Sequence record: MW602648.1
DNA: 57,011 bases
Origin: Escherichia phage vB_EcoM_fHy-Eco03
Direction: 5' to 3' (one strand)
Below the pieces are notes generated by a model. It was not told where the DNA came from. It saw nothing but the letters and a program-made list of their open reading frames with translations, and made no database searches. The first letter of the stretch is position 1; the number at the start of each line of letters is the position of its first letter. A program made the position numbers and the translations under genes. Below, one piece after another: positions 1-57,011 of the stretch.

Positions 1-45
1 GGCGCAAAAAGAAAAAAAGCCGGATTGCTTTTGAAATTATAGACA

Positions 46-74
46 TTTACACAAGTCTTAAACTATGTTACAAT
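46..74 (+). promoter_or_regulatory. Sigma70-like promoter (TTTACA-N17-TGtTACAAT) in terminal repeat
   Basis: TTTACA at 46..51, 17-bp spacer, TACAAT at 69..74 preceded by TG at 66..67; about 40 bp upstream of the ATG at 114. Duplicate at 53358..53386. Confidence 0.5.
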
Positions 75-113
75 AGTTATTATTTACAATGTTAAGCACA
101 ATAGGAATTCATC

Positions 114-311
114 ATGAGCTATACTGACCAACAAATTGACACAGCAGCGGTTTTATTGGCACAAGAGGTAGATTTATTGCATTCTTTGATGAATGCTAGT
201 CATGATAGAGCTGAAACTATCAAGAATCAGATACGGGAAATTTGGTCTCAGCAGGTCAGCAACGGTGTATCTTTGGACTTTTTGGTGTGCCGCCTGAGAG
301 GTCAACTGTAA
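114..311 (+). CDS. Hypothetical protein (65 aa)
   Basis: ATG ORF with AGGAA 6 nt upstream; stop overlaps the next start (TAATG). Confidence 0.5.
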   Translation: MSYTDQQIDTAAVLLAQEVDLLHSLMNASHDRAETIKNQIREIWSQQVSNGVSLDFLVCRLRGQL

Positions 312-736
312 TGGTAAACATAAGAAGCAAGGGCCAGAACTTTGAGCGTAAAATGTCGAAAATGTTCAATGAATCGTTCGGGTTATCTACTGAGAGAAAT
401 CTCCAGCAATCTATAAACGGTGGAGATGATTTGATGGGAGTCCCGTTCTTCAGCGTTGAGCTCAAGAAGCACAACACCAAAGCTATCGGGACTTGGTGGA
501 AGCAATGTGCGGAATCAGCACGGCGTCAAAGCAAGATGCCAGTGCTAATCTATGAGATGCCACGGCAAAAGCCCACTGTCGTGATGAGAATTGAGGACGT
601 CAGTCAAGCTTTGGCTGAGGCACCACTGTTGCCAGCGGCTAGTAACAGGCTCTTTGTGGGCTTGGTGGAATTAACATGGGAACAATTTTGCCGGGTCTAC
701 AACTTTTACGTTGCGCCCGGCGTCGAGGTTGCTTAG
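311..736 (+). CDS. Putative PD-(D/E)xK-family nuclease (141 aa)
   Basis: ATG at 311 overlaps the upstream stop. Motif GGDDLMGVPFFSVELKK (D...ELK) resembles the PD-(D/E)xK nuclease signature. Track ORF 242..736 is the same frame with an upstream start. Confidence 0.4.
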   Translation: MVNIRSKGQNFERKMSKMFNESFGLSTERNLQQSINGGDDLMGVPFFSVELKKHNTKAIGTWWKQCAESARRQSKMPVLIYEMPRQKPTVVMRIEDVSQALAEAPLLPAASNRLFVGLVELTWEQFCRVYNFYVAPGVEVA

Positions 737-774
737 GTTGATGCTTGCATCAACACCAGTCAACTGTAGTTGAC
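737..774. terminator. Two adjacent hairpins between convergent genes
   Basis: GTTGATG-cttg-CATCAAC (737..754) and GTCAAC-tgta-GTTGAC (759..774), between the + gene ending at 736 and the - gene ending at 777; no clear U-run. Confidence 0.3.
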
Positions 775-776
775 AC

Positions 777-962
777 TTAGTCTTGTTTCAACTCATCGCA
801 GATAACGCGTTGATTTTGAGCTGGTACAAACCCGAGTTCGAGCAAAGTGTAAGGACTATCGGCGACGCATTGTTCAATGGTAGTCCATTCAGTTTTGGAT
901 TCAATAATTTTGTAACTACAATCATGAGTAGCCACACATGTTGCCAGGATTAAGCCAATCAC
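777..962 (-). CDS. Hypothetical protein (61 aa, GTG start)
   Basis: GTG start overlaps the upstream stop (GTGA); GAAGGAG Shine-Dalgarno upstream. Confidence 0.45.
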   Translation of the reverse strand: MIGLILATCVATHDCSYKIIESKTEWTTIEQCVADSPYTLLELGFVPAQNQRVICDELKQD

Positions 963-1138
963 AAGTAATCTCCTTCAACCAGAAACTCAAACAATTGGTT
1001 GTAAACGTTGCAACCCTTAGCGAAAGAGCTTTCAGCAGGTTTACCATCGCGGACGATCATCATATATTCACCGCCATGAATATCCACCCAGTATTGCATG
1101 CCACCCTTGACAGGGTTACGTTGTAAGAATTTAAACAT
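959..1138 (-). CDS. Hypothetical protein (59 aa), absent from the ORF track
   Basis: Hand-translated: MFKFLQRNPVKGG...VEGDYL. AAGGAG 7 nt upstream of the ATG; start overlaps the upstream stop (TAATG) and stop overlaps the downstream GTG. Confidence 0.5.
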   Translation of the reverse strand: MFKFLQRNPVKGGMQYWVDIHGGEYMMIVRDGKPAESSFAKGCNVYNQLFEFLVEGDYL

Positions 1139-1383
1139 TATTTGCTCCTTACTCCAAGTTTATTCAATAACCACACTGTCATGTCAACCCAGGTTAACGG
1201 TACAGTTTTCGGGGGTTGATAAGACCAGCACTTTCCAGCTCTTTCCGCAATTTCTTCGCGCCTTGCCGCTTGGCGTAATACTGCATCGTCAGAAGTGCCG
1301 GCAGAAAAAATATCGGCAATACCAGATAAATCGCCTCGATGAACACGTCCAGCAAGTTCATGCAGTTGCTCCTCAGAAAACAT
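1138..1383 (-). CDS. Hypothetical protein (81 aa)
   Basis: ATG start overlaps the stop of the upstream small ORF (ATGTTTTCTGA); part of the coupled leftward array. Confidence 0.5.
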   Translation of the reverse strand: MFSEEQLHELAGRVHRGDLSGIADIFSAGTSDDAVLRQAARREEIAERAGKCWSYQPPKTVPLTWVDMTVWLLNKLGVRSK

Positions 1384-1492
1384 AAGACAACACCATTAGA
1401 ATGATGATAAAGACAGCAACGGCTTTCGCCATGCCACGAGATTCATTATACACCGGATTTTCAGTGGTGTACTCAACAACATGCTTTTTCAT
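1373..1492 (-). CDS. Small hydrophobic protein (39 aa), absent from the ORF track
   Basis: Hand-translated: MKKHVVEYTTENPVYNESRGMAKAVAVFIIILMVLSYVF. GGAGG Shine-Dalgarno upstream; hydrophobic C-terminal half suggests a membrane segment. Confidence 0.45.
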   Translation of the reverse strand: MKKHVVEYTTENPVYNESRGMAKAVAVFIIILMVLSYVF

Positions 1493-1549
1493 ACAACCTC
1501 CAGTGTGAGAAATATCAATTGATGGCACCCGCAGATGCCATCTCAGATA

Positions 1550-2122
1550 TTACTCGCCTTCAGTCTCAGATTTTTCTTCAGTCTGAGGTGCTGCGGCTTC
1601 GTAGACCGTCTTACCATCAGTGATTTTACCGGATTTAACATCGTTACGGTAATAACTCATGTAAGACTGTACAACACGTTTTGATTTAACATCATCTTCA
1701 GCCATTTCACAGGCTTTCATGGCATCCGCAAGAGCGAGTTTTGAATCGTCTTTGTCTGCCAAGTTGTAATCTTTGAAGACCGCGTAACAAGTATCTTTGG
1801 TACTCGGTCCTGAAGATTTACGAGTACAACCAGTTGAACCGGAACGACTAGCTTTCTTCACTTCAACATGCTCAACCTCAAGACTTTCAAGTGCCTTATA
1901 CAAAGCAGGCACCAGAACATCCTTGCTGTCTTTGTGGGTGACAGATGCTTCATCATCAAGACTTTTAATCATCTTGACCAGTTGAGCATTTTGGAACTCT
2001 TTGAGAGCGCCTTTCTCAACAACGATGCAACTCATCATGCCTTCCATTGACAGACCATCTTTGATGCCTTCAACAGAAAAAGCGGAAGTTAAGTAAACAT
2101 ACTGAGTGATAGAATTTTCCAT
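1550..2122 (-). CDS. Hypothetical early protein (190 aa)
   Basis: Long ORF with AAGAGGA Shine-Dalgarno upstream; largest ORF in the terminal repeat. Confidence 0.6.
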   Translation of the reverse strand: MENSITQYVYLTSAFSVEGIKDGLSMEGMMSCIVVEKGALKEFQNAQLVKMIKSLDDEASVTHKDSKDVLVPALYKALESLEVEHVEVKKASRSGSTGCTRKSSGPSTKDTCYAVFKDYNLADKDDSKLALADAMKACEMAEDDVKSKRVVQSYMSYYRNDVKSGKITDGKTVYEAAAPQTEEKSETEGE

Positions 2123-2252
2123 GATTTTGTCCTCTTGTTTGTGGTTGACATCATTATAATGTCATGACTTCAGTTGTTTGTACATCTCAAATCACACATT
2201 TTTGTGCAATTTTTATCATGCGGTACGAATTATACCGCATTGTAAAAATTAC

Positions 2253-2453
2253 TCAAGAAATAATTACCTCAGTAACTACTACAGTGTTAGCAGTCACTAA
2301 TGTCAAAACTTTACCAGCTTTTGACCTCACAGCTTTCAACCGTAATTGTGACTGTGTGTAATTATTCCACTCTTCATCACTGAGCACGGTCCTGGTAACT
2401 TCAGGTCGTTCATCTTTGCCAAGCTTCACTACTGTAACTTTGATTAATGGCAT
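2253..2453 (-). CDS. Hypothetical protein (66 aa)
   Basis: ORF packed 4 nt after the upstream gene. Confidence 0.45.
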   Translation of the reverse strand: MPLIKVTVVKLGKDERPEVTRTVLSDEEWNNYTQSQLRLKAVRSKAGKVLTLVTANTVVVTEVIIS

Positions 2454-2456
2454 TGC

Positions 2457-2684
2457 TTAAACCTCAAATTTTGATTCGTCATATTCAGGGTCAGTCACAT
2501 CACGAGTGACACAATTTTGGAGTGCAGTCCAGTATTTTTGGACTTCAGCACCCTCCATGTATAGTGTCCAACCGTGATAGTAACCCTCGAAACTATTCCA
2601 GGTCCGTTCCCAAATCTTTCCGTCTTCGAGCTTATACTCAGTTGGTCTTGAGTCAAACTCACGGATAGTTGTGAATGTTACCAT
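2457..2684 (-). CDS. Hypothetical protein (75 aa)
   Basis: ORF in the coupled leftward array. Confidence 0.45.
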   Translation of the reverse strand: MVTFTTIREFDSRPTEYKLEDGKIWERTWNSFEGYYHGWTLYMEGAEVQKYWTALQNCVTRDVTDPEYDESKFEV

Positions 2685-2753
2685 GCGTTGTTACGCCTCT
2701 GTTGAATAATTTCAATCATGAACTATCACAACTTTGATAGTTCATTGTTGAAA

Positions 2754-2933
2754 CTATTGTAACTTTGTACTAATTTGAATTGTCAATCTAAACTCTTCAA
2801 GTAAGTTATCAATGTTGGATTTATCTTCCACAGCGGTAGAAATTTGATCACTTACAATTTGAGCATTTGACTCAAGAAGTTCAATCAAATGTGTCAATTC
2901 GTCTGCTGTCAATGTCAATTCTTTCATCATCAT
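2754..2933 (-). CDS. Hypothetical acidic protein (59 aa), absent from the ORF track
   Basis: Hand-translated: MMMKELTLTADELTHLIELLESNAQIV... Start overlaps the stop of the upstream ORF (ATGATGA). Confidence 0.4.
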   Translation of the reverse strand: MMMKELTLTADELTHLIELLESNAQIVSDQISTAVEDKSNIDNLLEEFRLTIQISTKLQ

Positions 2934-3100
2934 TCTCCTGAGTTAAATTGTGTGTCAATTTCAATAACTTTGGAACGTACATATTCCAGACAGTCATCAT
3001 AATCGTATGAAGTGTAACTCGGCATTGGAGAATCCAACCCTTCGTTAACATTCCATTCACCTTCATTAACATCAAACCAGATGATTAATTGAGTATGCAT
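2930..3100 (-). CDS. Hypothetical protein (56 aa), absent from the ORF track
   Basis: Hand-translated: MHTQLIIWFDVNEGEWNVNEGLDSPMPSYTSYDYDDCLEYVRSKVIEIDTQFNSGE. AGGAGT Shine-Dalgarno 8 nt upstream of the ATG. Confidence 0.45.
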   Translation of the reverse strand: MHTQLIIWFDVNEGEWNVNEGLDSPMPSYTSYDYDDCLEYVRSKVIEIDTQFNSGE

Positions 3101-3270
3101 TGTTATTACTCCTGTGTTAAGTTGTTTCAGGTGAGACTACTAAACTACTAATAGTCTCTGGATGAAATAACTTCACAGAGAAACAAAACATGTACCAAAT
3201 TGTTAAAGAGCAAAAGACACCATTGACCATCTACCAGATGTGTCTGTTGACTGGTTAAGTACTAACTACA

Positions 3271-3462
3271 CTAAGTAACTACATGCATCCTCCTGAACCG
3301 TTTCTGTGTCAAGTTGTTCAACACATTCAATAAATACATTATGTCAAAGTCCCTGTTGGTTGTACACAATAGAAGTGCAAGTTTGTGCAAGCTTTTAGAA
3401 ATGATAATCATCTGCGGTTGATAGTGATTCTCGTATGCAATTGATATAGTAACGCTCGTCAC
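3271..3462 (-). CDS. Hypothetical protein (GTG start, uncertain)
   Basis: Track ORF; its 5' end overlaps repeat element A, so the start is uncertain. Confidence 0.3.
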   Translation of the reverse strand: MTSVTISIAYENHYQPQMIIISKSLHKLALLLCTTNRDFDIMYLLNVLNNLTQKRFRRMHVVT

Positions 3463-3545
3463 TACTCAGTGTGAAACAGTCGACGGGGGTAAACGTCACA
3501 CACCGGTGCTATATTAGTTCCCCGGCGCAATTTTTATAAAAAATA
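3440..3545. repeat. Imperfect direct repeat element A (about 100 bp)
   Basis: TTGATATAGTAACGCTCGTCACTACTCAGTGTGAAACAGTCGACGGGGGTAAACGTCACACACCGGTGCTATATTAGTTCCCCGGCGCAATTTTTAT aligns with element B 173 bp downstream. Confidence 0.6.
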
Positions 3546-3612
3546 CAATTTCGTTTGTAATCGTAGACATACGGTATAGTTGCGGCCCGGTACCGTCACG
3601 GTGAGTTGTGAT

Positions 3613-3720
3613 TACGATTGTAATGATAACGCACGTTACTATTCACTCTGAAGGGGTGCCGGGGGGTAATTGTCACCTAGGGGTGTTAATTTAAGCCCCG
3701 GCAAATTTTTTATTTTTTTC
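3613..3720. repeat. Imperfect direct repeat element B, spanning the terminal-repeat boundary
   Basis: TTGTAATGATAACGCACGTTACTATTCACTCTGAAGGGGTGCCGGGGGGTAATTGTCACCTAGGGGTGTTAATTTAAGCCCCGGCAAATTTTTTAT; the repeat boundary (3699/3700) falls inside it at CCCC|GGC. Confidence 0.6.
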
Positions 3721-3966
3721 GTCCTTTTTCATCTCAATCACTATCATTATGTGACAATCATCAGGTCACTGTACAATACCGTATACAATAAGCTTCACAA
3801 TCGCAATTGACTCTCCTCCATACAACAAAAGGCCCTCCAAAATTTTTTTATATCTTCCGTACCGAATATAGACACCTCTAAAAAGTGGTGTACTTTTCCA
3901 CCACTGCACGCTATCATTATTAGTAACTTCAACGGACTTCGGTCCTTCATATTGTGGGTTATATAA

Positions 3967-4461
3967 ATGGAAATTCAACAGCTTCTGCCATATCCGTACT
4001 ATATAGCTTGTGTCTTCAACCGAGCACAATACGATGAGCTTCGTGCTCAATTCAACTTACCAAGCTTTGGCTACTGGGAAGACCCAGAAGAAGAATGGCC
4101 AGTGGCTTCTGCATCATTCCTTGCACGCAAGGAACACCCTCGTAAACTGGGTATCATGTGCTTTTATGACAAGGATTTTGACATCTGCTCTGTAGCCCAC
4201 GAAGGTGTGCACATAATGTCTGACCTGATGCATCGCCTCGGCATTACCTACGACCCGTTAAACGACGAGCCGTATGCTTATCAGCTCGAGCAAATCATGT
4301 ACTTCGCACGGCATAAATACAACGAGCTTCACAGCGCTATTGAGCACGTTGAAAAGGCTGTTATTGACACAGGTAATCACCCTTTAGTGCTTGAACAGCC
4401 TCAAAATCAGCTCAATATGCTAAATTCGGCCCCTTCAACTGGCTTTCTGGACGGCAAATAA
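3967..4461 (+). CDS. Hypothetical protein with HExxH motif (164 aa)
   Basis: ORF containing HEGVH; first rightward gene after the terminal repeat. A metallopeptidase-like function is speculative. Confidence 0.4.
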   Translation: MEIQQLLPYPYYIACVFNRAQYDELRAQFNLPSFGYWEDPEEEWPVASASFLARKEHPRKLGIMCFYDKDFDICSVAHEGVHIMSDLMHRLGITYDPLNDEPYAYQLEQIMYFARHKYNELHSAIEHVEKAVIDTGNHPLVLEQPQNQLNMLNSAPSTGFLDGK

Positions 4462-53203: not shown

Positions 53204-53357
53204 TATATAAAAGATAGAGAGTATTTAAAACAAGTACTTAGGCATCCTTATTCATGTAATCCGGTTATATGTATTATATAATTATCAGATTGGATAAGAA
53301 AAAGTTATTGCCGGCGCAAAAAGAAAAAAAGCCGGATTGCTTTTGAAATTATAGACA

Positions 53358-53386
53358 TTTACACAAGTCTTAAACTATGTTACAAT
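53358..53386 (+). promoter_or_regulatory. Copy of the terminal-repeat promoter (TTTACA-N17-TGtTACAAT)
   Basis: Duplicate of 46..74. Confidence 0.5.
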
Positions 53387-53425
53387 AGTTATTATTTACA
53401 ATGTTAAGCACAATAGGAATTCATC

Positions 53426-53623
53426 ATGAGCTATACTGACCAACAAATTGACACAGCAGCGGTTTTATTGGCACAAGAGGTAGATTTATTGCATTCTTTG
53501 ATGAATGCTAGTCATGATAGAGCTGAAACTATCAAGAATCAGATACGGGAAATTTGGTCTCAGCAGGTCAGCAACGGTGTATCTTTGGACTTTTTGGTGT
53601 GCCGCCTGAGAGGTCAACTGTAA
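53426..53623 (+). CDS. Hypothetical protein (duplicate of 114..311)
   Basis: Identical copy in the right terminal repeat. Confidence 0.5.
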   Translation: MSYTDQQIDTAAVLLAQEVDLLHSLMNASHDRAETIKNQIREIWSQQVSNGVSLDFLVCRLRGQL

Positions 53624-54048
53624 TGGTAAACATAAGAAGCAAGGGCCAGAACTTTGAGCGTAAAATGTCGAAAATGTTCAATGAATCGTTCGGGTTATCT
53701 ACTGAGAGAAATCTCCAGCAATCTATAAACGGTGGAGATGATTTGATGGGAGTCCCGTTCTTCAGCGTTGAGCTCAAGAAGCACAACACCAAAGCTATCG
53801 GGACTTGGTGGAAGCAATGTGCGGAATCAGCACGGCGTCAAAGCAAGATGCCAGTGCTAATCTATGAGATGCCACGGCAAAAGCCCACTGTCGTGATGAG
53901 AATTGAGGACGTCAGTCAAGCTTTGGCTGAGGCACCACTGTTGCCAGCGGCTAGTAACAGGCTCTTTGTGGGCTTGGTGGAATTAACATGGGAACAATTT
54001 TGCCGGGTCTACAACTTTTACGTTGCGCCCGGCGTCGAGGTTGCTTAG
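53623..54048 (+). CDS. Putative PD-(D/E)xK-family nuclease (duplicate of 311..736)
   Basis: Identical copy in the right terminal repeat. Confidence 0.4.
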   Translation: MVNIRSKGQNFERKMSKMFNESFGLSTERNLQQSINGGDDLMGVPFFSVELKKHNTKAIGTWWKQCAESARRQSKMPVLIYEMPRQKPTVVMRIEDVSQALAEAPLLPAASNRLFVGLVELTWEQFCRVYNFYVAPGVEVA

Positions 54049-54088
54049 GTTGATGCTTGCATCAACACCAGTCAACTGTAGTTGACAC

Positions 54089-54274
54089 TTAGTCTTGTTT
54101 CAACTCATCGCAGATAACGCGTTGATTTTGAGCTGGTACAAACCCGAGTTCGAGCAAAGTGTAAGGACTATCGGCGACGCATTGTTCAATGGTAGTCCAT
54201 TCAGTTTTGGATTCAATAATTTTGTAACTACAATCATGAGTAGCCACACATGTTGCCAGGATTAAGCCAATCAC
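54089..54274 (-). CDS. Hypothetical protein (duplicate of 777..962)
   Basis: Identical copy in the right terminal repeat. Confidence 0.45.
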   Translation of the reverse strand: MIGLILATCVATHDCSYKIIESKTEWTTIEQCVADSPYTLLELGFVPAQNQRVICDELKQD

Positions 54275-54450
54275 AAGTAATCTCCTTCAACCAGAAACTC
54301 AAACAATTGGTTGTAAACGTTGCAACCCTTAGCGAAAGAGCTTTCAGCAGGTTTACCATCGCGGACGATCATCATATATTCACCGCCATGAATATCCACC
54401 CAGTATTGCATGCCACCCTTGACAGGGTTACGTTGTAAGAATTTAAACAT
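54271..54450 (-). CDS. Hypothetical protein (duplicate of 959..1138)
   Basis: Identical copy in the right terminal repeat. Confidence 0.5.
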   Translation of the reverse strand: MFKFLQRNPVKGGMQYWVDIHGGEYMMIVRDGKPAESSFAKGCNVYNQLFEFLVEGDYL

Positions 54451-54695
54451 TATTTGCTCCTTACTCCAAGTTTATTCAATAACCACACTGTCATGTCAAC
54501 CCAGGTTAACGGTACAGTTTTCGGGGGTTGATAAGACCAGCACTTTCCAGCTCTTTCCGCAATTTCTTCGCGCCTTGCCGCTTGGCGTAATACTGCATCG
54601 TCAGAAGTGCCGGCAGAAAAAATATCGGCAATACCAGATAAATCGCCTCGATGAACACGTCCAGCAAGTTCATGCAGTTGCTCCTCAGAAAACAT
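54450..54695 (-). CDS. Hypothetical protein (duplicate of 1138..1383)
   Basis: Identical copy in the right terminal repeat. Confidence 0.5.
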   Translation of the reverse strand: MFSEEQLHELAGRVHRGDLSGIADIFSAGTSDDAVLRQAARREEIAERAGKCWSYQPPKTVPLTWVDMTVWLLNKLGVRSK

Positions 54696-54804
54696 AAGAC
54701 AACACCATTAGAATGATGATAAAGACAGCAACGGCTTTCGCCATGCCACGAGATTCATTATACACCGGATTTTCAGTGGTGTACTCAACAACATGCTTTT
54801 TCAT
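54685..54804 (-). CDS. Small hydrophobic protein (duplicate of 1373..1492)
   Basis: Identical copy in the right terminal repeat. Confidence 0.45.
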   Translation of the reverse strand: MKKHVVEYTTENPVYNESRGMAKAVAVFIIILMVLSYVF

Positions 54805-54861
54805 ACAACCTCCAGTGTGAGAAATATCAATTGATGGCACCCGCAGATGCCATCTCAGATA

Positions 54862-55434
54862 TTACTCGCCTTCAGTCTCAGATTTTTCTTCAGTCTGAGG
54901 TGCTGCGGCTTCGTAGACCGTCTTACCATCAGTGATTTTACCGGATTTAACATCGTTACGGTAATAACTCATGTAAGACTGTACAACACGTTTTGATTTA
55001 ACATCATCTTCAGCCATTTCACAGGCTTTCATGGCATCCGCAAGAGCGAGTTTTGAATCGTCTTTGTCTGCCAAGTTGTAATCTTTGAAGACCGCGTAAC
55101 AAGTATCTTTGGTACTCGGTCCTGAAGATTTACGAGTACAACCAGTTGAACCGGAACGACTAGCTTTCTTCACTTCAACATGCTCAACCTCAAGACTTTC
55201 AAGTGCCTTATACAAAGCAGGCACCAGAACATCCTTGCTGTCTTTGTGGGTGACAGATGCTTCATCATCAAGACTTTTAATCATCTTGACCAGTTGAGCA
55301 TTTTGGAACTCTTTGAGAGCGCCTTTCTCAACAACGATGCAACTCATCATGCCTTCCATTGACAGACCATCTTTGATGCCTTCAACAGAAAAAGCGGAAG
55401 TTAAGTAAACATACTGAGTGATAGAATTTTCCAT
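54862..55434 (-). CDS. Hypothetical early protein (duplicate of 1550..2122)
   Basis: Identical copy in the right terminal repeat. Confidence 0.6.
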   Translation of the reverse strand: MENSITQYVYLTSAFSVEGIKDGLSMEGMMSCIVVEKGALKEFQNAQLVKMIKSLDDEASVTHKDSKDVLVPALYKALESLEVEHVEVKKASRSGSTGCTRKSSGPSTKDTCYAVFKDYNLADKDDSKLALADAMKACEMAEDDVKSKRVVQSYMSYYRNDVKSGKITDGKTVYEAAAPQTEEKSETEGE

Positions 55435-55564
55435 GATTTTGTCCTCTTGTTTGTGGTTGACATCATTATAATGTCATGACTTCAGTTGTTTGTACATCTC
55501 AAATCACACATTTTTGTGCAATTTTTATCATGCGGTACGAATTATACCGCATTGTAAAAATTAC

Positions 55565-55765
55565 TCAAGAAATAATTACCTCAGTAACTACTACAGTGTT
55601 AGCAGTCACTAATGTCAAAACTTTACCAGCTTTTGACCTCACAGCTTTCAACCGTAATTGTGACTGTGTGTAATTATTCCACTCTTCATCACTGAGCACG
55701 GTCCTGGTAACTTCAGGTCGTTCATCTTTGCCAAGCTTCACTACTGTAACTTTGATTAATGGCAT
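55565..55765 (-). CDS. Hypothetical protein (duplicate of 2253..2453)
   Basis: Identical copy in the right terminal repeat. Confidence 0.45.
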   Translation of the reverse strand: MPLIKVTVVKLGKDERPEVTRTVLSDEEWNNYTQSQLRLKAVRSKAGKVLTLVTANTVVVTEVIIS

Positions 55766-55768
55766 TGC

Positions 55769-55996
55769 TTAAACCTCAAATTTTGATTCGTCATATTCAG
55801 GGTCAGTCACATCACGAGTGACACAATTTTGGAGTGCAGTCCAGTATTTTTGGACTTCAGCACCCTCCATGTATAGTGTCCAACCGTGATAGTAACCCTC
55901 GAAACTATTCCAGGTCCGTTCCCAAATCTTTCCGTCTTCGAGCTTATACTCAGTTGGTCTTGAGTCAAACTCACGGATAGTTGTGAATGTTACCAT
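55769..55996 (-). CDS. Hypothetical protein (duplicate of 2457..2684)
   Basis: Identical copy in the right terminal repeat. Confidence 0.45.
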   Translation of the reverse strand: MVTFTTIREFDSRPTEYKLEDGKIWERTWNSFEGYYHGWTLYMEGAEVQKYWTALQNCVTRDVTDPEYDESKFEV

Positions 55997-56065
55997 GCGT
56001 TGTTACGCCTCTGTTGAATAATTTCAATCATGAACTATCACAACTTTGATAGTTCATTGTTGAAA

Positions 56066-56245
56066 CTATTGTAACTTTGTACTAATTTGAATTGTCAATC
56101 TAAACTCTTCAAGTAAGTTATCAATGTTGGATTTATCTTCCACAGCGGTAGAAATTTGATCACTTACAATTTGAGCATTTGACTCAAGAAGTTCAATCAA
56201 ATGTGTCAATTCGTCTGCTGTCAATGTCAATTCTTTCATCATCAT
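56066..56245 (-). CDS. Hypothetical protein (duplicate of 2754..2933)
   Basis: Identical copy in the right terminal repeat. Confidence 0.4.
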   Translation of the reverse strand: MMMKELTLTADELTHLIELLESNAQIVSDQISTAVEDKSNIDNLLEEFRLTIQISTKLQ

Positions 56246-56412
56246 TCTCCTGAGTTAAATTGTGTGTCAATTTCAATAACTTTGGAACGTACATATTCCA
56301 GACAGTCATCATAATCGTATGAAGTGTAACTCGGCATTGGAGAATCCAACCCTTCGTTAACATTCCATTCACCTTCATTAACATCAAACCAGATGATTAA
56401 TTGAGTATGCAT
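56242..56412 (-). CDS. Hypothetical protein (duplicate of 2930..3100)
   Basis: Identical copy in the right terminal repeat. Confidence 0.45.
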   Translation of the reverse strand: MHTQLIIWFDVNEGEWNVNEGLDSPMPSYTSYDYDDCLEYVRSKVIEIDTQFNSGE

Positions 56413-56582
56413 TGTTATTACTCCTGTGTTAAGTTGTTTCAGGTGAGACTACTAAACTACTAATAGTCTCTGGATGAAATAACTTCACAGAGAAACAAAA
56501 CATGTACCAAATTGTTAAAGAGCAAAAGACACCATTGACCATCTACCAGATGTGTCTGTTGACTGGTTAAGTACTAACTACA

Positions 56583-56774
56583 CTAAGTAACTACATGCAT
56601 CCTCCTGAACCGTTTCTGTGTCAAGTTGTTCAACACATTCAATAAATACATTATGTCAAAGTCCCTGTTGGTTGTACACAATAGAAGTGCAAGTTTGTGC
56701 AAGCTTTTAGAAATGATAATCATCTGCGGTTGATAGTGATTCTCGTATGCAATTGATATAGTAACGCTCGTCAC
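56583..56774 (-). CDS. Hypothetical protein (duplicate of 3271..3462)
   Basis: Identical copy in the right terminal repeat. Confidence 0.3.
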   Translation of the reverse strand: MTSVTISIAYENHYQPQMIIISKSLHKLALLLCTTNRDFDIMYLLNVLNNLTQKRFRRMHVVT

Positions 56775-57011
56775 TACTCAGTGTGAAACAGTCGACGGGG
56801 GTAAACGTCACACACCGGTGCTATATTAGTTCCCCGGCGCAATTTTTATAAAAAATACAATTTCGTTTGTAATCGTAGACATACGGTATAGTTGCGGCCC
56901 GGTACCGTCACGGTGAGTTGTGATTACGATTGTAATGATAACGCACGTTACTATTCACTCTGAAGGGGTGCCGGGGGGTAATTGTCACCTAGGGGTGTTA
57001 ATTTAAGCCCC

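Follow-up and report, generated by a model that had tools for sequence, protein, structure and literature searches.

The terminal repeat of Escherichia phage vB_EcoM_fHy-Eco03 (Rosemountvirus, GenBank MW602648) carries a leftward array of nine small genes, g03 to g11. From our analysis of the whole 57,011-bp genome (hereafter, the window), which has a direct terminal repeat of 3,699 bp, we propose, with a probability of roughly 60%, that these genes form an accessory early module of small host-directed proteins, in which the g05 locus specifies two proteins from overlapping frames. The array itself is nothing new, because g03R–g11R are already annotated in MW602648, published and mostly cloned. 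What looks new here is alt55, an open reading frame (ORF) of 55 codons embedded in g05, which was overlooked in an earlier reading of the sequence by itself (the original prediction); the probable dual coding of g05 is thus our addition, and it bears on the only array phenotype with experimental support, the toxicity of the g05 clone.

Nine genes of the array are under coding constraint

Nine minus-strand genes, with products of 39–190 amino acids (aa), lie between 777 and 3100; together with alt55 they span 89% of this interval, and the GC content of the array is 40% vs 45.7% for the unique part of the genome. These are real genes: in comparisons with ten relatives (KM, KE25, SOI901, Sz, S144, ZCSE2, AEV23, JEP7, birk and SPLA12), all nine have homologues without internal stops or frame-breaking gaps, an excess of differences at third codon positions and a ratio of non-synonymous to synonymous differences (pN/pS) of roughly 0–0.5 at informative divergence. 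Coding constraint, which the original prediction had proposed as a check on the array, was therefore seen in every gene, including the four ORFs of less than 60 aa (959..1138, 1373..1492, 2754..2933 and 2930..3100) that it had picked out as genes. Their description as invisible holds only for an ORF track with a lower limit of 60 aa, because all four are annotated in MW602648. Five further frames that had been taken for shadows of the real genes (938..1126, 1098..1385, 1797..1985, 1868..2050 and, on the minus strand, 2881..3075) contain stops in relatives or have pN/pS values of at least 1, as expected for shadows, and their differences cluster opposite the third positions of the real genes.

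The distances from the stop of each gene to the start of the next, from g11 to g03, are −4, +69, +3, +130, +57, −11, −1 and −4 nt, which group the genes in four blocks: g11-g10, g09-g08, g07 and g06-g05-g04-g03. The array had been described as a single chain of about ten coupled ORFs; the overlaps within blocks agree with this, but there are nine genes in four blocks, set apart by three gaps of 57–130 nt with hairpins. The ATGA, TAATG and GTGA overlaps are indeed present: g11 and g10 are joined by ATGA, or by TGATG when the better-spaced second ATG of g10 is considered, g05 and g04 by TAATG, and g04 and g03 by GTGA. The g06 and g05 genes overlap by 11 nt, and g09 and g08 are separated by 3 nt. 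Since stops and starts overlap at most of the within-block junctions, translation is probably coupled inside the blocks. The good Shine-Dalgarno (SD) sites attributed to the array vary in strength. Pairing with the anti-SD sequence is strong for g03, g04, g06, g10 (second ATG) and g11, with values of −6.9 to −9.9 kcal/mol that are among the best ca. 1–6% when all 212 start-like codons of the region are ranked. Genes g07, g08 and g09 show moderate pairing, and it is weak for g05 (−2.8 kcal/mol), whose start overlaps the g06 stop instead.

The g05 locus probably encodes two proteins

Gene g05 (1138..1383, minus strand) encodes a product of 81 aa that is 100% identical to the annotated fHyEco03_gp05R/gp05L; there is an 11-nt overlap between its start and the g06 stop, and another overlap between its stop and the g04 start. 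Wholly inside it, in the +1 frame, lies alt55 (1194..1361, minus strand; 54506–54673 in the right copy of the repeat), which is unannotated in fHy-Eco03 and belongs to phrog_28081. The deduced 55-aa product, MNLLDVFIEAIYLVLPIFFLPALLTMQYYAKRQGAKKLRKELESAGLINPRKLYR, has one N-terminal predicted transmembrane (TM) helix (Kyte-Doolittle hydropathy of 2.36), a basic tail and an isoelectric point of 9.9. The ATG of alt55 is preceded at 7 nt by an SD, GAGGAG, with a pairing energy of −8.4 kcal/mol, vs −2.8 kcal/mol for g05. We consider it likely that both frames code: Gp05 would probably be translated by coupling to g06, and alt55 would be translated from its own strong SD.

Sequence comparison reveals constraint on both frames. 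In 15 of 15 distinct sequences, from Rosemountvirus, Loughboroughvirus, Erwinia phage SOI901 and metagenomes (two lineages), the two frames are open and keep their start codons, and alt55 also conserves its SD and is free of stops in all lineages; an antisense frame of 95 aa at the same locus is interrupted in most of these 15 sequences. In the g05 tail, i.e. the 18 codons past the alt55 stop, changes are distributed by codon position as [18, 7, 35] (p = 6e-5), with pN/pS values of 0.07–0.42. Over the overlap the corresponding figures are [49, 35, 36] and the third-position excess is gone, with a third-position share of 30% vs 58% in the tail (Fisher p = 3.5e-4; binomial p = 7e-6 against an expectation of 50%). 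With 0.74 substitutions per site, the overlap changes more slowly than the tail (1.13), and the commonest changes in the overlap are those at third positions of alt55. When the alt55 protein was held fixed, the g05 frame was open in only 0.8% of codon resamplings and, in simulations of selection on a single frame, the other frame stayed intact in all seven lineages in 0.1–0.2% of the runs. Additionally, the g05 start is kept in SE4 despite an indel of two codons, and the changes in one of the metagenomic lineages (L016) are silent in g05 but not in alt55.

A single gene at this locus, either with alt55 as a by-product of the composition of Gp05 or with the g05 frame open by chance, would agree with the practice of annotators, who pick one of the frames and never both, and the sample is small enough (some 5–7 lineages with ca. 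120 inferred changes) to leave this alternative some room. Several points weigh against dual coding. Its weakest link is that, when codons are resampled from the Gp05 sequence alone, an ATG-started +1 ORF of 55 codons or more arises in 19% of cases; moreover, the alt55 SD doubles as coding sequence of g05, the third-position excess of alt55 is marginal (p = 0.05), and the simulation assumes a star tree that treats seven related lineages as independent, so that its p-values are too small. Nevertheless, if only Gp05 were made, the third-position excess of g05 should not vanish exactly over the stretch shared with alt55, nor should the ATG, SD and open frame of alt55 be kept in all lineages. If only alt55 were made, the g05 frame should rarely be open, judging from the resamplings, and we would not expect the clear codon signature in the g05 tail, a g05 start that outlasts the indel in SE4 or the changes in L016 that spare Gp05 and not alt55. 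On balance, we regard a single gene as unlikely and dual coding as the better supported explanation.

A −1 shift of frame at the nearly invariant CCCCCGAAAAC, leading from alt55 to the tail of g05, was also considered and not adopted, because a canonical slippery heptamer is absent and the g05 start is conserved. No other embedded ORF of the array is conserved like alt55. The embedded minus-strand ORFs 788–937, 922–1047, 1543–1641, 1858–1959 and 2495–2662 were rejected: they lack an SD and most have stops in relatives, ORF 2495–2662 diverges faster than its host gene, and ORF 922–1047 is open in the relatives having g04.

Toxicity of the g05 clone could be due to either product

The toxicity of g03, g04, g05, g06, g08, g09, g10 and g11 was previously screened in E. 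coli DH10B, with g07 outside the screen, and only the g05 clone was clearly toxic, with a next-generation sequencing ratio of 0.003, a plating fraction of 0.16 and growth inhibition from pBAD30; g10 was borderline, in the plating assay only, and the remaining six (g03, g04, g06, g08, g09 and g11) showed no toxicity (Kasurinen et al. 2021, Viruses 13:750, PMC8145870). The g05 fragment amplified by polymerase chain reaction runs from 1383 to 1138, and the forward primer contains the alt55 SD. Therefore, all g05 constructs obtained with this primer include alt55, which was intact in the toxic clone, so the toxicity is not yet assignable to Gp05, and either Gp05 or alt55 could explain it. That g05 is truly dual-coding and that the published toxicity is caused by the alt55 peptide and not by Gp05 is a tentative combination, which we find somewhat doubtful; if true, a small membrane-targeting toxin would be nested in another early gene of a phage terminal repeat. 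The basic tail of the peptide would presumably be cytoplasmic. We identified single-base changes that stop one of the frames of the locus and are silent in the other.

The identity of the toxic product bears on the proposals of Gp05 as a phage-inspired antimicrobial lead and as a possible interactor of RecG. The similarity of Gp05 to RecG suggested in the original description (PMC8145870) was not reproduced in a profile search against PDB sequences or in a Foldseek search with the model of the protein.

The array lies wholly inside an exact terminal repeat

Positions 1–3699 and 53313–57011 are identical, with 0 mismatches. The left copy (1..3699) contains g01 and g02 on the plus strand, the leftward array and the array leader, and in the right copy (53313..57011) the array genes are found at the left-copy coordinates plus 53312 (54089–56412); the GenBank annotation covers both copies (e.g. 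gp05R/gp05L). The published genome, of 57,011 bp, was likewise reported to have 3,699-bp repeats, as determined with PhageTerm, with 11 predicted genes in the repeat, and a ScaI digest agreed with the predicted fragments (PMC8145870). Furthermore, phage vB_SalM_Sz (57,020 bp), which was sequenced independently, has an exact repeat of 4,263 bp, with both ends at positions homologous to those of fHy-Eco03. The left boundary of the repeat reads TTGCC|GGCGC (53308–53317, plus strand) and the right boundary, on the minus strand, TTGCC|GGGGC (3695–3704), with a similar copy of the motif near 3525. This motif, shared in opposite orientation, fits with staggered nicks on opposite strands during formation of the repeat.

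Most of the related GenBank records are 52–53 kb long, without a repeat and with circularly permuted numbering, which favours the alternative that the repeat is an artefact of assembly or reporting and the array a single-copy internal cluster with no special tie to the genome ends. Against this stand the PhageTerm result and the matching digest, the repeat of Sz with its homologous start and end, and the presence of TTGCC|GG in opposite orientation at both boundaries, so that we consider an artefact highly improbable. The location of the array in the terminal repeat, as originally predicted, is hence upheld by the exact repeat, the PhageTerm analysis and the homologous repeat of Sz. Being inside it, the array is at most ca. 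3.5 kb away from either end and occurs in two copies in virion DNA; the double dose claimed for it applies to the infecting linear genome and would not extend to replicating concatemers.

Other features of the repeat and of the DNA deserve mention. A sigma-70-like promoter, TTTACA-N17-TACAAT with an upstream TG, occurs at 46–74 (plus strand), 46 bp from the left end; it precedes g01 and g02, the latter coding for a RusA-like resolvase, and could serve to express both genes from the left copy of the repeat, where the upstream g79–g80 genes are missing. A hairpin is located at 759..774, between the convergent genes g02 and g03. Separately, nine of ten restriction enzymes did not cut fHy-Eco03 DNA, for which the authors propose an unidentified DNA modification (PMC8145870); this resistance is unrelated to the array and relevant to restriction evasion.

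A conserved leader and inter-block hairpins

Upstream of the array there is a conserved non-coding leader and promoter region of ca. 470 bp (3101..3570, minus strand), in which positions 3125–3568 align at 75–79% identity across both genera, with indels of 1, 2, 8 and 13 nt. The original prediction extended the array up to 3462, a limit that has to be abandoned: ORF 3271–3462 is not a gene, with no SD, an in-frame stop in ZCSE2 and a shortened frame in the birk group. ORFs 3395–3499 and 3117–3230 were similarly rejected, since these three ORFs lack an SD and lie in the conserved leader with its frame-breaking indels.

The best conserved candidate for a sigma-70-like promoter is found at 3338..3366 (minus strand; TGTACA-N17-CATAAT), with an invariant −35 hexamer and a −10 element that is TATTAT or CATAAT in all lineages. 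Downstream, a start-stop mini-ORF (3279..3294, minus strand) consists of a conserved AGGAGG followed by an invariant ATG and a stop (ATG-TAG, 3284–3279); it reads ATG-TAG in fHy-Eco03, KM and ZCSE2, ATG-GTT-TAA/TAG in the birk group and ATG-AGG-TAA in SOI901. The leader also contains a possible hairpin (3200–3243, minus strand) formed by AGACAC…GTGTCT, then TTTTGCTCTTT. In the birk/JEP7 lineage the stem is AGGTAC…GTACCT, equivalent to two compensatory pairs in one lineage only, and the hairpin is no stabler than shuffled sequence (z = +1.07); it could conceivably be an attenuator or the end of a short RNA. A search of Rfam with positions 1–4200 yielded nothing credible.

Each of the gaps between blocks holds a minus-strand hairpin. 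The one in the g10–g09 gap (2710..2753) has a minimum free energy of −21.3 kcal/mol (z = −5.5), and none of 200 shuffled sequences was as stable. After g08 there is another hairpin (2206..2252), in a 130-nt gap with z = −5.7, which is overlapped by a promoter-like site, TTGAGT-N16-TATAAT (2256..2229), scoring 10/12 in the scan. The third, terminator-like (z = −2.7), lies directly after the g07 stop (1521..1542). These hairpins might act as terminators, as processing sites of RNase III type or as stabilisers of mRNA.

Products of the array

The first gene of the array, g11 (2930..3100, minus strand; phrog_5461), encodes a very acidic protein with a net charge of −10.4 in 56 aa; its SD is AGGAG (−6.9 kcal/mol), and pN/pS values are 0.15–0.17 vs KM and SOI901. 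Residues 29–50 of its product (YTSYDYDDCLEYVRSKVIEIDT, 22 residues) resemble a designed consensus helix pair of tetratricopeptide repeats, but we discarded homology because the low E-value is inflated by the 8 repeats of the match. Gene g10 (2754..2930/2933, minus strand) encodes an acidic helical protein of 58–59 aa, with a net charge of −7.4 in 58 aa and pN/pS values of 0.26–0.30. Its start is likely the second ATG (2930): this codon overlaps with the stop of g11, has an SD of −7.4 kcal/mol and is also the one used in the GenBank record. The product of g09 (2457..2684, minus strand), of 75 aa, is again acidic (net charge of −7.4; pN/pS of ca. 0.3), and matches the C-terminal portion of a protein of 129 aa in other Rosemountviruses (positions 56–128 of 129 in phrog_37772). 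Gene g08 (2253..2453, minus strand; phrog_35966) starts 3 nt past the g09 stop and encodes a basic protein of 66 aa.

The largest gene, g07 (1550..2122, minus strand), encodes a protein of 190 aa with two helical domains and a Ser/Gly-rich linker; pN/pS values are 0.08–0.38 and the differences with ZCSE2 are distributed by codon position as [51, 33, 90]. An AlphaFold2 (AF2) model places the helical domains at residues 34–81 and 106–175, joined by a disordered linker, with a predicted local distance difference test score of 64.8. Two peptides of Gp07 were detected by liquid chromatography with tandem mass spectrometry of purified virions, as were lysozyme and spanin (Table S6, PMC8145870). As these two proteins were also in the preparation, the peptides of Gp07 show translation and not a structural role.

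Gene g06 (1373..1492, minus strand) encodes a peptide of 39 aa with a predicted C-terminal TM helix (Kyte-Doolittle hydropathy of 2.46; phrog_10979, 'membrane protein'), with a GGAGG SD of −9.9 kcal/mol and pN/pS values of 0.17–0.49. A GTG-extended version of g06 (1373–1528) was rejected for its weak SD and its start within a hairpin. Gene g04 (959..1138, minus strand; 59 aa) has an AAGGAG SD of −8.4 kcal/mol, and shows 9 synonymous and 0 non-synonymous differences with birk. The last gene, g03 (777..962, minus strand; 61 aa), has a GTG start in the GTGA overlap, an SD of −8.8 kcal/mol and pN/pS values of 0.12–0.18. Its product contains four cysteines and an N-terminus, M-[I/F]-GLIL-[A/G]-[T/V]-C, that is kept across divergent versions, which may point to a lipoprotein or to an envelope protein with disulfide bonds, even if the hydrophobic stretch is unusually short.

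Searches for function

Scans of the ten products with Pfam, NCBIfam and PADLOC gave nothing above noise, and the PHROGs families that they match are private and of 'unknown function', that of g06 having only a bare label as membrane protein. Sequence searches against PDB with g03, g04 and g08–g11, and profile searches with Gp05 and Gp07, found nothing credible at E ≤ 1, with hits at chance level only. The AF2 model of Gp05, of four helices, has a predicted template modelling (pTM) score of 0.30 and no match with Foldseek; the model of Gp07 has no match in PDB and, in BFVD, matches only itself and uncharacterised proteins of T4-like phages. These results agree with the original statement that none of the products has a recognisable function, as judged from sequence searches and from Foldseek with the models of Gp05 and Gp07. 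The anti-restriction or Ocr/Dar/Acr-like folds suggested as a possibility did not materialise: considering a set formed by Ocr, ArdA, Arn, gp5.9, Dar and Acr, we found no similarity in the sequence and profile searches of PDB or with Foldseek of the two models. The array does contain a trait of DNA-mimic type, the small and strongly acidic products of g09–g11, which is compatible with an anti-defence family and not specific to it.

Relatives and their annotation

Megablast comparisons with phage records retrieved relatives from Rosemountvirus and Loughboroughvirus with 80–95% identity. Gene order and content are mosaic among them, and only g05/alt55, g06 and g07 occur in every member examined; in S144, ZCSE2 and birk, g07 is located close to where the array starts, and there are several diverged or replaced versions of g03, g04, g08, g10 and g11. 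Using alt55 and g07 as tblastn queries against 50,697 phage records, we retrieved only this phage group, plus a few T4-like phages in the case of g07. Likewise, in IMG/VR, metagenome contigs and a large protein database, relatives were found only within this phage group.

The array of MW602648 is annotated with coordinates identical to ours for g03–g09 and g11, with the g10 start at 2930 and without alt55, and its description (PMC8145870) does not treat the leader, nor does it present the array as an early module. Between the genes for the RusA-like resolvase and a Ku-like protein, a leftward cluster of small genes homologous to the array exists in S144, where it was named cluster E, and, among others, in BP63, ZCSE2 and birk. 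For S144 (Loughboroughvirus), this cluster was reported to be low in GC and to have predicted promoters, with its function unassigned (Gambino et al. 2020, PMC7432712). It differs from the array of fHy-Eco03 in gene order and content, and it is alt55 (ORF72, transmembrane) and not Gp05 that is annotated there.

More generally, the 81-aa frame is annotated in fHy-Eco03, ZCSE2, JEP7, SPLA12, AEV23 and SOI901, and the 55-aa frame in KM, KE25, S144, birk and Sz, with no record annotating both; in PHROGs, the 55-aa protein has a family (phrog_28081) and Gp05 has none. We also noticed that several ORFs of 30–50 aa annotated in the conserved leader of KM (PV660647; 4945–5327 and 5467–5745) are probable over-calls, and that the g05 homologue of SOI901 (PP700703; 2503–2850) is annotated with a probably over-called N-terminal extension of ca. 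33 codons across the g06 homologue. The inconsistent choice of frame in g05 and the over-calls in the leader could be corrected across ca. 60 genomes of Rosemountvirus and Loughboroughvirus, many of them from candidate therapeutic phages.

A putative early host-interaction module

In the role that we propose, transcription of the array by the host sigma-70 RNA polymerase would begin shortly after entry of either genome end, in the conserved leader and at one or more internal promoters, with the hairpins separating the blocks as terminators, processing sites or stabilisers. The products would comprise the very acidic proteins of g09, g10 and g11, the single-pass membrane peptides of g06 and alt55, and the two-domain protein of g07, and would act on host or envelope targets. 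The mosaic gene content and the low GC fit an accessory host-interaction module. The early timing, which we infer from promoter-like motifs, the takeover of the host and the choice of either g05-locus product as the toxic one should all be read as suggestions. Some observations count against this proposal. There are 16 promoter-like sites vs 10.5 ± 3.5 expected, which is only ca. 1.6 standard deviations above shuffled sequences, and they are consensus matches only; six of the eight screened genes are not toxic in DH10B, so a general role in host shut-off is unsupported for most of them; and the searches disclosed no protein of T5 or SPO1, and no anti-defence protein, that resembles the products in sequence or fold, although the modest AF2 models (pTM of 0.30 and 0.39) make the negative fold searches weak evidence.

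Alternatively, these genes might be an accessory cargo serving to protect the infected cell or to exclude other phages, with g06, alt55 and g03 acting at the envelope and the rest as dispensable 'morons'. There are precedents of envelope-acting proteins in T4 Imm and Sp and in T5 Llp, and the two predicted single-pass membrane peptides, the four cysteines of g03 and its conserved hydrophobic N-terminus ending in Cys, the lack of toxicity of most genes when expressed alone and the mosaic gene content among relatives would all be in line with it. This role is harder to reconcile with the strong toxicity of the g05-locus fragment, or with the soluble nature of the two-domain protein of g07 and of three strongly acidic proteins among the ten products; besides, the N-terminal segment of g03, with 8 residues before the Cys, is short by what is established for lipoprotein signal peptides. 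We therefore see the cargo role as improbable, and prefer to view the array as an early module directed to the host.

Comparison with known systems

Modules located in terminal repeats include the pre-early, or first-step-transfer, genes of T5, the host-takeover module of SPO1, in a terminal redundancy of 13 kb, and the 'tre' genes of Twort-like phages. The array of fHy-Eco03 lies in a shorter repeat (3.7 kb vs 10–13 kb), most of its products are not toxic alone, and no sequence or fold similarity to any of these modules was found, so that membership in their class by homology fails. The likeness is one of organization: as in these phages, the genes are densely packed, mostly small and without assigned function, and reside in a long exact terminal repeat near the entering end. 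At least one product here, that of the g05 clone, is toxic for the host, and the SPO1 module also includes a small membrane protein, gp56. A putative role of the array in early interactions with the host, comparable to that of the T5 or SPO1 modules, is plausible.

Pairs of phage genes in different frames of the same DNA are exemplified by B within A and E within D in phiX174, and by Rz1 within Rz in lambda. The putative pair of g05 and alt55 shares with these the same arrangement, in which a short ORF for a membrane protein, here in the +1 frame, lies wholly inside a longer gene, has its own SD and start, and is conserved together with the frame that contains it.

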